Shown piece by piece: positions 17,357 to 22,141 of a stretch of 64,000 bases of DNA (positions are counted from its first letter, which is position 1; every line of letters starts with the position of its first letter). This DNA comes from Escherichia coli (GTDB lineage Bacteria > Pseudomonadota > Gammaproteobacteria > Enterobacterales > Enterobacteriaceae): assembly GCF_003334335.1 (NCBI RefSeq), contig NZ_QOWQ01000001.1; one strand, 5' to 3'. The notes beneath the pieces were generated by a model, which was not told the DNA's origin, did not search any database, and saw only the letters and a program-made list of their open reading frames with translations. Both the position numbers and the translations under genes were made by a program.

Positions 17357-18634
17357 ATGAAAACCAAAGTTGCTGCTATTTATGGCAAGCGGGATGTCCG
17401 TCTGCGCGTATTTGAACTGCCAGAAATTACCGATAATGAATTACTGGTGAGTGTAATTTCTGACAGCGTCTGTTTATCGACCTGGAAAGCGGCGTTACTC
17501 GGTAGTGAACATAAACGCGTACCCGACGATTTAGAAAATCATCCGGTCATTACCGGGCATGAATGTGCCGGGGTTATTGTCGAAGTGGGTAAAAATCTCA
17601 CTGGCAAATATAAAAAAGGCCAGCGTTTTGTATTGCAACCGGCGATGGGGTTACCAAGCGGATATTCAGCGGGCTACAGCTACGAATATTTTGGCGGCAA
17701 TGCCACTTATATGATTATTCCCGAAATCGCCATTAATTTGGGCTGCGTATTACCGTATCACGGCTCTTATTTTGCTGCGGCGTCGCTGGCAGAGCCTATG
17801 TGCTGCATTATTGGTGCTTATCATGCCAATTATCACACCACGCAATATGTTTATGAGCATCGCATGGGCGTCAAACCTGGCGGCAATATTGCACTGCTGG
17901 CGTGTGCAGGTCCGATGGGCATTGGCGCTATCGATTACGCCATTAACGGCGGCATACAACCGTCGCGGGTGGTGGTGGTCGATATCGACGACAAACGTCT
18001 GGCGCAGGTACAGAAGCTGCTGCCGGTGGAACTGGCGGCCAGTAAAGGCATTGAGCTGGTGTATGTGAATACCAAAGGGATGAGCGATCCTGTCCAGATG
18101 CTGCGGGCGCTGACAGGAGATGCCGGGTTCGATGACATTTTTGTTTATGCGGCGGTGCCTGCTGTCGTTGAGATGGCTGATGAATTACTGGCGGAAGATG
18201 GCTGTCTGAACTTCTTTGCCGGGCCGACGGATAAAAACTTCAAAGTGCCGTTTAATTTCTACAACGTCCATTACAACAGCACGCACGTCGTCGGTACATC
18301 TGGCGGTTCAACGGACGACATGAAAGAGGCGATTGCCCTTAGCGCCACTGGGCAGTTACAGCCGTCGTTTATGGTGACCCATATCGGTGGCCTGGATGCG
18401 GTGCCAGAAACCGTGCTCAATCTGCCGGATATCCCTGGCGGTAAAAAACTCATTTATAACGGCGTGACCATGCCGCTCACTGCCATTGCCGATTTTGCCG
18501 AAAAAGGCAAAACCGATCCGCTGTTTAAAGAGTTGGCGCGGCTGGTTGAGGAAACGCACGGCATCTGGAATGAACAGGCCGAGAAATATCTGCTGGCACA
18601 ATTTGGCGTTGATATCGGGGAGGCCGCGCAATGA
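17357..18634 (+). CDS. yggP: Zinc-dependent medium-chain dehydrogenase/reductase-like protein, 425 aa
   Basis: Full ORF; MDR-like motifs (GHECAG); stop overlaps the yggF start. Confidence 0.85.
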   Translation: MKTKVAAIYGKRDVRLRVFELPEITDNELLVSVISDSVCLSTWKAALLGSEHKRVPDDLENHPVITGHECAGVIVEVGKNLTGKYKKGQRFVLQPAMGLPSGYSAGYSYEYFGGNATYMIIPEIAINLGCVLPYHGSYFAAASLAEPMCCIIGAYHANYHTTQYVYEHRMGVKPGGNIALLACAGPMGIGAIDYAINGGIQPSRVVVVDIDDKRLAQVQKLLPVELAASKGIELVYVNTKGMSDPVQMLRALTGDAGFDDIFVYAAVPAVVEMADELLAEDGCLNFFAGPTDKNFKVPFNFYNVHYNSTHVVGTSGGSTDDMKEAIALSATGQLQPSFMVTHIGGLDAVPETVLNLPDIPGGKKLIYNGVTMPLTAIADFAEKGKTDPLFKELARLVEETHGIWNEQAEKYLLAQFGVDIGEAAQ

Positions 18635-19596
18635 TGTCCCTGGCGTGGCCATTATTTCGCGTTACGGAACAGGCAGCGTTGGCTGCCTGGCCGCAAACCG
18701 GATGTGGCGACAAAAATAAAATTGATGGCCTGGCGGTCACCGCGATGCGCCAGGCATTAAACGACGTCGCTTTTCGTGGACGAGTGGTTATCGGCGAAGG
18801 AGAAATTGACCATGCGCCGATGCTGTGGATTGGCGAAGAGGTGGGCAAAGGCGATGGGCCAGAAGTCGATATCGCGGTTGATCCCATTGAAGGCACGCGG
18901 ATGGTGGCGATGGGGCAGAGCAATGCGCTGGCGGTCATGGCTTTCGCCCCTCGAGATAGCCTGTTACATGCGCCCGATATGTATATGAAAAAGCTGGTTG
19001 TTAATCGGCTGGCGGCGGGCGCGATTGATCTGTCTTTGCCTCTGACGGACAACCTGCGCAACGTGGCGAAAGCGTTAGGCAAACCGCTGGATAAGCTGCG
19101 CATGGTTACGCTGGATAAACCGCGCCTGAGTGCCGCGATTGAGGAAGCAACACAGCTGGGCGTGAAGGTTTTTGCCCTGCCGGATGGCGATGTCGCCGCC
19201 AGCGTGCTGACCTGCTGGCAGGATAATCCTTACGATGTGATGTACACCATCGGCGGTGCGCCAGAAGGCGTGATTTCTGCCTGTGCCGTTAAAGCATTAG
19301 GCGGGGATATGCAGGCCGAGCTGATTGACTTTTGCCAGGCTAAAGGGGATTACACGGAAAATCGGCAGATTGCAGAGCAGGAGCGCAAGCGTTGCAAGGC
19401 AATGGGCGTTGACGTTAACCGTGTGTACTCGCTCGATGAACTGGTGAGGGGGAACGATATCCTCTTTAGCGCTACGGGCGTGACGGGCGGTGAGCTGGTG
19501 AACGGTATCCAACAGACGGCGAATGGGGTGCGGACGCAGACATTACTGATCGGCGGCGCGGACCAAACGTGTAATATAATAGACTCCCTGCATTGA
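18631..19596 (+). CDS. yggF: Fructose-1,6-bisphosphatase class II (GlpX paralogue), 321 aa
   Basis: Full ORF recognised as GlpX-like FBPase. Confidence 0.9.
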   Translation: MMSLAWPLFRVTEQAALAAWPQTGCGDKNKIDGLAVTAMRQALNDVAFRGRVVIGEGEIDHAPMLWIGEEVGKGDGPEVDIAVDPIEGTRMVAMGQSNALAVMAFAPRDSLLHAPDMYMKKLVVNRLAAGAIDLSLPLTDNLRNVAKALGKPLDKLRMVTLDKPRLSAAIEEATQLGVKVFALPDGDVAASVLTCWQDNPYDVMYTIGGAPEGVISACAVKALGGDMQAELIDFCQAKGDYTENRQIAEQERKRCKAMGVDVNRVYSLDELVRGNDILFSATGVTGGELVNGIQQTANGVRTQTLLIGGADQTCNIIDSLH

Positions 19597-19617: not shown

Positions 19618-20127
19618 ATGGCGACGCTGACAGAAGATGATGTGCTTGAGCAACTGGATGCACAGGACAATTTATTTTCATTTATGAAAACTGCGCATAC
19701 CATTTTGCTCCAGGGGATACGCCAGTTTCTGCCGTCGCTGTTTGTCGATAACGATGAAGAGATCGTGGAATATGCAGTGAAGCCGTTACTCGCCCAAAGC
19801 GGCCCGCTTGACGATATTGATGTTGCACTGCGTTTGATTTATGCGTTGGGGAAAATGGATAAATGGTTGTACGCCGATATCACGCATTTTTCCCAGTTCT
19901 GGCATTACCTGAACGAACAGGATGAAACGCCCGGATTTGCCGATGACATGACCTGGGATTTTATCAGCAACGTCAATAGCATAACCCGCAATGCGATGCT
20001 CTATGACGCGTTAAAAGCGATGAAGTTCGCTGATTTCTCCGTCTGGTCAGAGGCGCGTTTTAGCGGAATGGTCAAAACGGCGCTGACGCTGGCAGTAACG
20101 ACCACCTTAAAGGAATTAACGCCGTGA
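19618..20127 (+). CDS. yggD: MtlR-like (mannitol operon repressor family) protein, 169 aa
   Basis: Full ORF; small acidic helical protein resembling MtlR; stop overlaps the yggC start. Confidence 0.8.
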   Translation: MATLTEDDVLEQLDAQDNLFSFMKTAHTILLQGIRQFLPSLFVDNDEEIVEYAVKPLLAQSGPLDDIDVALRLIYALGKMDKWLYADITHFSQFWHYLNEQDETPGFADDMTWDFISNVNSITRNAMLYDALKAMKFADFSVWSEARFSGMVKTALTLAVTTTLKELTP

Positions 20128-20837
20128 AAATTGAATTAACGGTGAATGGGCTGAAGATACAGGCACAGTACCAGAACGAAGAGATTGAAAATGTACATAA
20201 ACCGTTGCTGCACATGTTGGCGGCCTTACAGACGGTAAATCCGCAGCGGCGTACGGTGGTTTTTCTTTGCGCTCCGCCGGGGACGGGTAAATCAACCCTA
20301 ACCACCTTCTGGGAATATCTCGCGCAACAAGACCCGGAACTGCCCGCTATTCAGACGCTCCCGATGGATGGTTTTCACCATTACAATAGCTGGCTGGATG
20401 CGCATCAATTGCGCCCCTTCAAAGGCGCACCAGAGACATTTGACGTTGCGAAACTGACGGAAAATCTGCGCCAGGTCGTGGAAGGGGATTGTACGTGGCC
20501 GCAGTACGATCGACAAAAGCATGATCCTGTTGAAGATGCGTTGCACGTTACCGCACCACTCGTCATCGTCGAAGGAAACTGGTTGTTACTGGATGATGAA
20601 AAGTGGCTGGAGTTGGCATCTTTCTGCGATTTTTCTATTTTTATTCATGCACCTGCTCAAATTCTGCGGGAGCGCTTGATTAGTCGTAAAATTGCGGGAG
20701 GATTAACGCGGCAAGTAGCCGAAGCATTTTATGCCCGCACCGATGGCCCCAATGTCGAGCGTGTGCTGATGAATAGCCGTCAGGCCAATCTGATAGTAGA
20801 GATGACTGAAGAAGGCCGGTATCACTTCACAAGCTGA
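20124..20837 (+). CDS. yggC: P-loop nucleoside/sugar kinase-like protein, 237 aa
   Basis: Full ORF; Walker A APPGTGKST. Confidence 0.85.
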   Translation: MKIELTVNGLKIQAQYQNEEIENVHKPLLHMLAALQTVNPQRRTVVFLCAPPGTGKSTLTTFWEYLAQQDPELPAIQTLPMDGFHHYNSWLDAHQLRPFKGAPETFDVAKLTENLRQVVEGDCTWPQYDRQKHDPVEDALHVTAPLVIVEGNWLLLDDEKWLELASFCDFSIFIHAPAQILRERLISRKIAGGLTRQVAEAFYARTDGPNVERVLMNSRQANLIVEMTEEGRYHFTS

Positions 20838-20984
20838 CAATTTATTCCAGTTATTGTAGGGTTATTATTACGCCAGCCTGGAATAAAGCTTCCCACAAAA
20901 GGGGATAAAAGTGTGATGTGAGTCAGATAAATGTCTTCTTCGGCTGGACAAACATTCCTTTTATTCCACGTTTCGCTTATCCTA

Positions 20985-21001
20985 GCTGAAGCGTTTCAGT
21001 C
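20985..21001. promoter_or_regulatory. Cra (FruR)-type operator-like palindrome upstream of epd
   Basis: gctgaagcgtttcagtc fits the TGAA-N-TTCA Cra half-site arrangement, about 120 bp upstream of the epd ATG. Confidence 0.4.
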
Positions 21002-21121
21002 GATTAAATGTTCGACAATTAACCAATCAGTCGCAGTTTGCGACAGGTAAGGTTTCCCCGGACGATTTGCTGGATTACTCTGTCTGGCAAATTTGCTCAG
21101 GGAAAACCTTGCAGGAGATCT

Positions 21122-22141
21122 ATGACCGTACGCGTAGCGATAAATGGCTTCGGTCGCATCGGGCGTAATGTGGTTCGTGCTTTGTATGAATCCGGACGCC
21201 GGGCGGAAATTACCGTGGTGGCAATCAACGAACTGGCGGATGCTGCGGGCATGGCGCATTTGTTGAAATATGACACCAGCCATGGCCGTTTTGCATGGGA
21301 AGTACGACAGGAACGCGATCAACTTTTTGTTGGTGATGACGCCATCCGCGTATTGCATGAACGTTCACTGCAATCGCTCCCCTGGCGTGAACTTGGCGTT
21401 GATGTAGTCCTCGACTGCACCGGCGTATATGGCTCCCGCGAGCATGGCGAAGCGCATATTGCCGCCGGGGCCAAAAAAGTGCTCTTTTCACATCCTGGCA
21501 GTAACGATCTCGACGCGACCGTTGTTTACGGCGTCAATCAGGATCAACTTCGTGCGGAACACCGCATCGTTTCTAACGCTTCCTGTACCACGAATTGCAT
21601 AATTCCCGTCATCAAATTGTTAGATGATGCGTACGGTATTGAGTCCGGCACTGTGACCACAATTCACTCCGCCATGCACGATCAACAGGTTATTGATGCA
21701 TACCATCCTGACCTGCGTCGCACCCGGGCAGCCAGCCAGTCGATCATTCCGGTCGATACTAAACTGGCCGCCGGTATCACACGATTTTTTCCGCAATTTA
21801 ACGATCGCTTTGAAGCGATTGCGGTACGTGTGCCAACCATAAATGTGACGGCAATCGATTTAAGCGTGACGGTGAAGAAACCTGTAAAAGCCAATGAAGT
21901 CAACCTGTTGCTGCAAAAAGCAGCACAAGGTGCATTTCATGGTATAGTTGACTATACGGAATTGCCGTTGGTCTCTGTAGATTTTAACCACGATCCGCAC
22001 AGTGCCATTGTCGATGGCACCCAAACCCGGGTCAGTGGCGCACACCTGATCAAAACGTTGGTCTGGTGCGATAACGAATGGGGCTTTGCTAACCGAATGC
22101 TCGACACGACGTTAGCTATGGCTACTGTTGCTTTCAGGTAA
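21122..22141 (+). CDS. epd: D-erythrose-4-phosphate dehydrogenase, 339 aa
   Basis: ORF 21038..22141 trimmed to [17 protein letters not shown]; GAPDH-family fold with active-site SNASCTTNC. Confidence 0.95.

Follow-up and report, generated by a model that had tools for sequence, protein, structure and literature searches.

The window (i.e. the whole 64-kb stretch of Escherichia coli DNA that was analysed) carries on its plus strand the gene yggC (20124-20837; NCBIfam and RefSeq annotation of the identical locus), followed by epd (21122-22141, plus strand; erythrose-4-phosphate dehydrogenase, first gene of its operon; NCBIfam NF010058, 702 bits, and RefSeq annotation of the identical locus), pgk (22191-23354, plus strand; phosphoglycerate kinase; RefSeq annotation of the identical locus) and fbaA (23569-24648, plus strand; class II fructose-bisphosphate aldolase; RefSeq annotation of the identical locus L001 8870-9949, offset 14699). 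The product of pgk scored 426 bits against NCBIfam NF010569 (a bifunctional phosphoglycerate kinase/triosephosphate isomerase model), under the 883-bit cut-off. With yggC ending at 20837 and the epd ATG lying at 21122, the spacer between the two genes spans 284 bp (20838-21121), and the sequence read from the window at 20985-21001 is exactly gctgaagcgtttcagtc; the original prediction, which had set a 17-bp site at these positions within a 284-bp yggC-epd spacer, is thus borne out by the sequence and the gene ends. The 601 bases around this site are 100% identical to those of many E. coli genomes (K-12 derivatives included). The gene for Cra (catabolite repressor-activator, also FruR; LacI/GalR family) is located outside the 64-kb window; it is annotated at 88028-89032 in K-12 ER3413, a genome in which the epd spacer is 100% identical to that of the window.

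Further upstream, yggF (class II fructose-bisphosphatase, annotated as glpX; 18631-19596) is an intact open reading frame of 321 amino acids in the window. Its counterpart in strain ER1709 (L001 3933-4897) is annotated as frameshifted, and the epd region of that strain is otherwise identical to the window.

Match to the Cra motif and its expectation by chance

The Cra (FruR) motif is given as gcTGAAtCGaTTCAgc, and its ChIP-exo version as ctgaAtCGaTtcag (PMC5888115). The core of the site, GCTGAAGCGTTTCAGT (20985-21000, unstranded), agrees with gcTGAAtCGaTTCAgc at 13 of the 16 positions, among them all ten of high information (i.e. those in upper case), and has the TGAA-N-CG-N-TTCA arrangement with a central CG that characterizes the Cra motif. 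Its description as near-palindromic was accurate, as six of the eight symmetric pairs match when the 16-mer is folded upon its centre (GCTGAAGC|GTTTCAGT). The exact pattern GCTGAANCGNTTCAG occurs a single time in the 64-kb window. Looser matching (one or two mismatches) gave counts at chance level, so that only the exact match is informative.

For a scan of the window we used a simple weighted consensus (maximum score 26), which stands in for a curated weight matrix. The matrix scan that had been proposed as a check of the prediction, carried out in this form, placed the operator at the top of the 64-kb window, with a score of 23/26 and a runner-up of 21. As a score of 23 was reached in six of 200 first-order Markov simulations of the whole window, a chance hit in one particular 284-bp promoter spacer is very unlikely (roughly 1e-4). 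The same simulations (in which a few random 64-kb sequences attain the operator's score somewhere), together with the chance-level frequency of patterns with one or two mismatches, are what can be said in favour of a functionless near-palindrome arisen by chance in AT-rich intergenic DNA, a reading to which the comparative data below leave next to no credence.

The runner-up (score 21/26) is ACTGAAACGGTTAAGC at 27601-27616, about 25-40 nt upstream of the start of an open reading frame for a LysR-type regulator (ygfI-like; ATG at 27625 or 27640). We rejected it as a real Cra site, as the score of 21 was reached in 101 of 200 simulations and the intergenic region in which it lies gave no alignment to Citrobacter; the match is probably a product of chance.

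Architecture of the epd promoter

The published epd promoter is ACATTCCTTTTATTCCACGTTTCGCTTATCCTAGCTGAA, with a transcription start 132 nt upstream of the ATG and with FruR and Crp as its regulators (PMC2759082 Table 1, citing Bardey 2005). Mapping this distance onto the ATG at 21122 sets the start of epd-pgk-fbaA transcription (epd P0/P1) at 20990 on the plus strand, where the promoter string ends in ...CCTAGCTGAA, and +1 is thereby the second A of GCTGAA. The operator core consequently spans -5 to +11, lying over the start site and directly after the -10 box. The site had been placed in the spacer at large, which is correct but can be refined to an overlap with the transcription start, and it is this overlap that explains repression.

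From the published start and the sequence we assign the -10 hexamer to TATCCT (20978-20983, plus strand; 4/6 matches vs TATAAT), within a region whose TTA...T positions are conserved across 13 species (see below). The spacing of 17 bp then points to a weak -35 element, TTCCTT (20955-20960, plus strand), situated in the conserved block ATTCCTTTTATTCC, with TTCC (20955-20958) being invariant in the 13-species alignment. A sigma-70 consensus scan of the spacer found no promoter; we do not accept this as an argument against one, since the mapped promoter is weak and CRP-dependent, and a weak, activator-dependent promoter is expected to be missed by such a scan. Furthermore, sequence and conservation indicate a CRP site, TGTGAtgtgagTCAGA (20912-20927, unstranded), centred at -70.5 in a class I position, in which the 13 species share an invariant GTGA and, for the most part, the TCAGA half. 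A CRP-type site at this distance agrees with the class I activation by CRP described for the epd promoter (PMC5888115).

Conservation of the operator in E. coli and related genera

Within the species, the 41 nt around the operator (20973-21013) are present in 5421 of 5426 complete E. coli genomes and 100% identical in 5383 of them. For a broader comparison we aligned 13 species, i.e. the E. coli of the window and 12 further epd upstream regions from Enterobacteriaceae and Erwiniaceae (E. albertii, Citrobacter, Superficieibacter, Enterobacter sp. Ag1, Salmonella, Buttiauxella, Cronobacter, Cedecea, Mangrovibacter, Erwinia and two Pantoea). A degenerate-pattern scan of genome contigs, with a pattern that also matches the GAPDH of many phyla, gave at least 10 useful gammaproteobacterial epd loci, and further loci were added by protein search and by look-ups of exact proteins.

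The sequence GCTGAA[G/C]CGTTTCAGT was found 132-146 nt upstream of the epd ATG in 13/13 species, and the only core base to vary corresponds to position 7 of the Cra motif, where information content is low. Accordingly, 15 of the 16 core columns are invariant, as compared to 13% of the columns elsewhere in the spacer (hypergeometric P about 1e-11), no other 16-bp stretch of the spacer alignment is conserved as strongly as the interval 20985-21000, and the two longest invariant runs of the noncoding region (20985-20990 and 20992-21000) both fall inside this interval. The flanking base 21001, by contrast with this core, is T in Salmonella and Pantoea and A in Mangrovibacter. Of the 17-mer initially proposed, the 16 bases at 20985-21000 therefore stand as a conserved functional core and the last one does not. 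The gene upstream of epd differs between species (yggC, tkt or a divergent gene), and as the operator is kept regardless, we regard the module as belonging to epd. It forms a clean phylogenetic footprint, no other element of the spacer being as well conserved as its 16-bp core in these two enteric families.

These data bear directly on two of the alternative explanations. The reading of the site as a chance palindrome is refuted by conservation and published binding: the contrast between invariant core and surrounding spacer in the 13 species, a context identical in 99% of the 5426 E. coli genomes, and a position exactly on a mapped start site, where both binding and function have been published (see below), are all at odds with it. 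The palindrome might otherwise act as a nucleic-acid hairpin in place of a protein site (i.e. as a terminator of transcripts running on from yggC or as a stem-loop at the 5' end of the epd mRNA), since a 5-bp stem could be formed by CTGAA and TTCAG. We nevertheless reject this reading too and consider it hardly tenable, for the terminator scan gave nothing at 20985-21001 (after the A/T-rich stem comes TCGATTAAATG, with no T-run) and transcription begins within the palindrome, at 20990, which leaves only its right arm in the epd mRNA. Moreover, compensatory substitutions would be tolerated in a hairpin; here the bases stay fixed instead of covarying, and the sole variable position is the one that carries little information in the Cra motif. 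In most E. coli, as in several other genera, a gene other than yggC lies upstream of epd.

The epd upstream regions of five Vibrionaceae and one Glaciecola contained no Cra site, with best scores of 14-17/26 that equal background. FruR is a local regulator of fru genes in Vibrionales and Pseudomonadales and a global one, with central glycolysis among its targets, in Enterobacteriales (PMC4052901). The absence of the operator upstream of Vibrionaceae epd agrees with the local role described for FruR in Vibrionales (PMC4052901).

In addition to the conserved operator, Pantoea sp. Mb-10 (L130) carries another strong Cra-like match, CCTGAATCGGTTCAAT (22/26). This second site is situated in the tkt-epd interval, 256 nt before the epd ATG and about 124 bp before the operator.

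Published binding and identity of the regulator

[quoted passage not shown] The 18-mer AGCTGAAGCGTTTCAGTC, taken 'from epd gene', has been used as a Cra operator in synthetic promoters: placed just after pBAD it lowered activity 3.7-fold in the wild type and left it unchanged in delta-cra, and outside the promoter it was without effect (PMC8363753).

A further explanation is that a different repressor of the LacI/GalR family uses the site, either in place of Cra or alongside it. The central CG and the dyad symmetry (inverted half-sites of 6-8 bp) are indeed features found across that family, but it is the Cra motif that has TGAA-N-CG-N-TTCA half-sites at this spacing. PurR, GalR, LacI and RbsR have half-sites that differ from the Cra ones. 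As ChIP-exo puts Cra itself on the epd promoter (PMC5888115) and the repression exerted by the isolated 18-mer is lost in delta-cra (PMC8363753), this explanation is largely refuted, and we rate it as very improbable.

Taken together, the motif match, the top score in the window, the conservation, the published ChIP-exo and the functional use of the sequence leave us in little doubt that 20985-21000 is the Cra operator of the epd-pgk-fbaA promoter, and no evidence contradicting this identity was found. The initial suggestion of a Cra-like operator upstream of epd-pgk-fbaA is hence supported by its motif, its position in the promoter and the published ChIP-exo and delta-cra data. The operator is the already described P0 site of E. 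coli epd (gapB) and not a new member of the family. Charpentier 1998 and Bardey 2005 are reportedly the primary footprinting and mutagenesis studies of the epd (gapB) P0 Cra operator.

The reach of this control is qualified by two published observations. In glucose-grown PTS- strains the role of Cra at the epd operon is minor (PMC2759082), from which it follows that the strength of repression depends on conditions. Furthermore, pgk-fbaA are also transcribed independently, from a promoter within the 3' portion of epd (PMC2759082), so that the Cra operator would control epd fully and pgk-fbaA only partly.

Proposed mechanism and comparison with other Cra operators

Under low glycolytic flux (on acetate or other gluconeogenic substrates), effector-free Cra would occupy the epd operator, where we infer that it may sterically block the binding of RNA polymerase or the formation of the open complex, thereby overriding recruitment by CRP-cAMP. 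Sugar catabolism would in turn supply fructose-1-phosphate, which, judging from the general behaviour of Cra, should free the repressor and allow the epd promoter to fire. Whether fructose-1,6-bisphosphate is a further effector that releases Cra is debated. Release by fructose-1-phosphate is a general property of Cra (PMC8363753).

The element of the window shows no difference from the described E. coli epd (gapB) P0 operator (PMC2759082, PMC5888115, PMC8363753), with which it shares the sequence AGCTGAAGCGTTTCAGTC, the locus, the position relative to the -10 box and start, and the CRP site as upstream partner. The operators of gapA, pdhR-aceEF and mtlA share its motif, and there too Cra, bound at or downstream of the promoter, overrides activation by CRP (PMC5888115). 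They are not identical in geometry: in gapA and pdhR the Cra site lies downstream of the promoter (roadblock), whereas the epd site lies across the -10 box and +1 (promoter occlusion). More distantly, the FruR operators of fruBKA in Vibrionales and Pseudomonadales (PMC4052901, PMC7897506) are bound by an orthologous regulator through a related palindromic motif, but FruR in these orders controls fru genes only, unlike enteric Cra at epd.

We consider the epd operator to be one of the switches that bring the expression of lower-glycolysis enzymes into line with carbon flux, Cra taking precedence over CRP on poor carbon sources, and it is already in use as a portable flux-responsive part in metabolic engineering. 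Its confirmation here brings no new biology; it shows that a true transcription-factor site is recognisable from sequence alone.

The epd leader

Given the published start site, the 5' leader of the epd mRNA is 132 nt long (20990-21121, plus strand). Folding of the region 20990-21140 predicted several hairpins (-50.4 kcal/mol, z -2.9; none of 200 shuffles was as stable), and one long leader stem stops just before the Shine-Dalgarno sequence AGGAG. Covariation in the alignment fold of ten Enterobacteriaceae was weak (term -0.3), with compensatory change in 4 of the 31 pairs, and on this ground we set aside a conserved RNA structure in the leader. Rfam covariance models gave no match with E-values up to 1 in the region 20800-21200.

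Adjoining the operator, the block 21001-21028 (TCGATTAAATGTTCGACAATTAACCAAT; +12 to +39) holds the inverted repeat GTCGA-N8-TCGAC. It is nearly invariant in ten Enterobacteriaceae and unrelated in Erwinia and Pantoea, which retain the Cra site. That the block constitutes a separate, undescribed regulatory element of the epd leader strikes us as rather unlikely; if so, it might serve as an additional site for a protein, or form a 5' hairpin for RNA stability or processing, and act together with Cra.

A variable cassette beside the promoter

All 5426 complete E. coli genomes contain the promoter portion of the spacer (20901-21121); only 2098 of them have the 63-83 nt that directly follow the yggC stop. 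The K-12-type yggC-epd junction (20838 to about 20900) is thus a pan-genome breakpoint, located a short way upstream of the CRP site. In about 61% of complete E. coli genomes, and also in Salmonella, a five-gene cassette of about 3.4 kb, divergent to epd, is found between yggC and epd (e.g. in strain S103EC; compare L134 1050-4500 and L123 1-1200). Its products are a PPC-domain DNA-binding protein and, from the other four genes, an ECF transporter (S, T and two ATPase components). Owing to this position of the breakpoint, strains that carry the cassette have the epd promoter region set between divergent genes.
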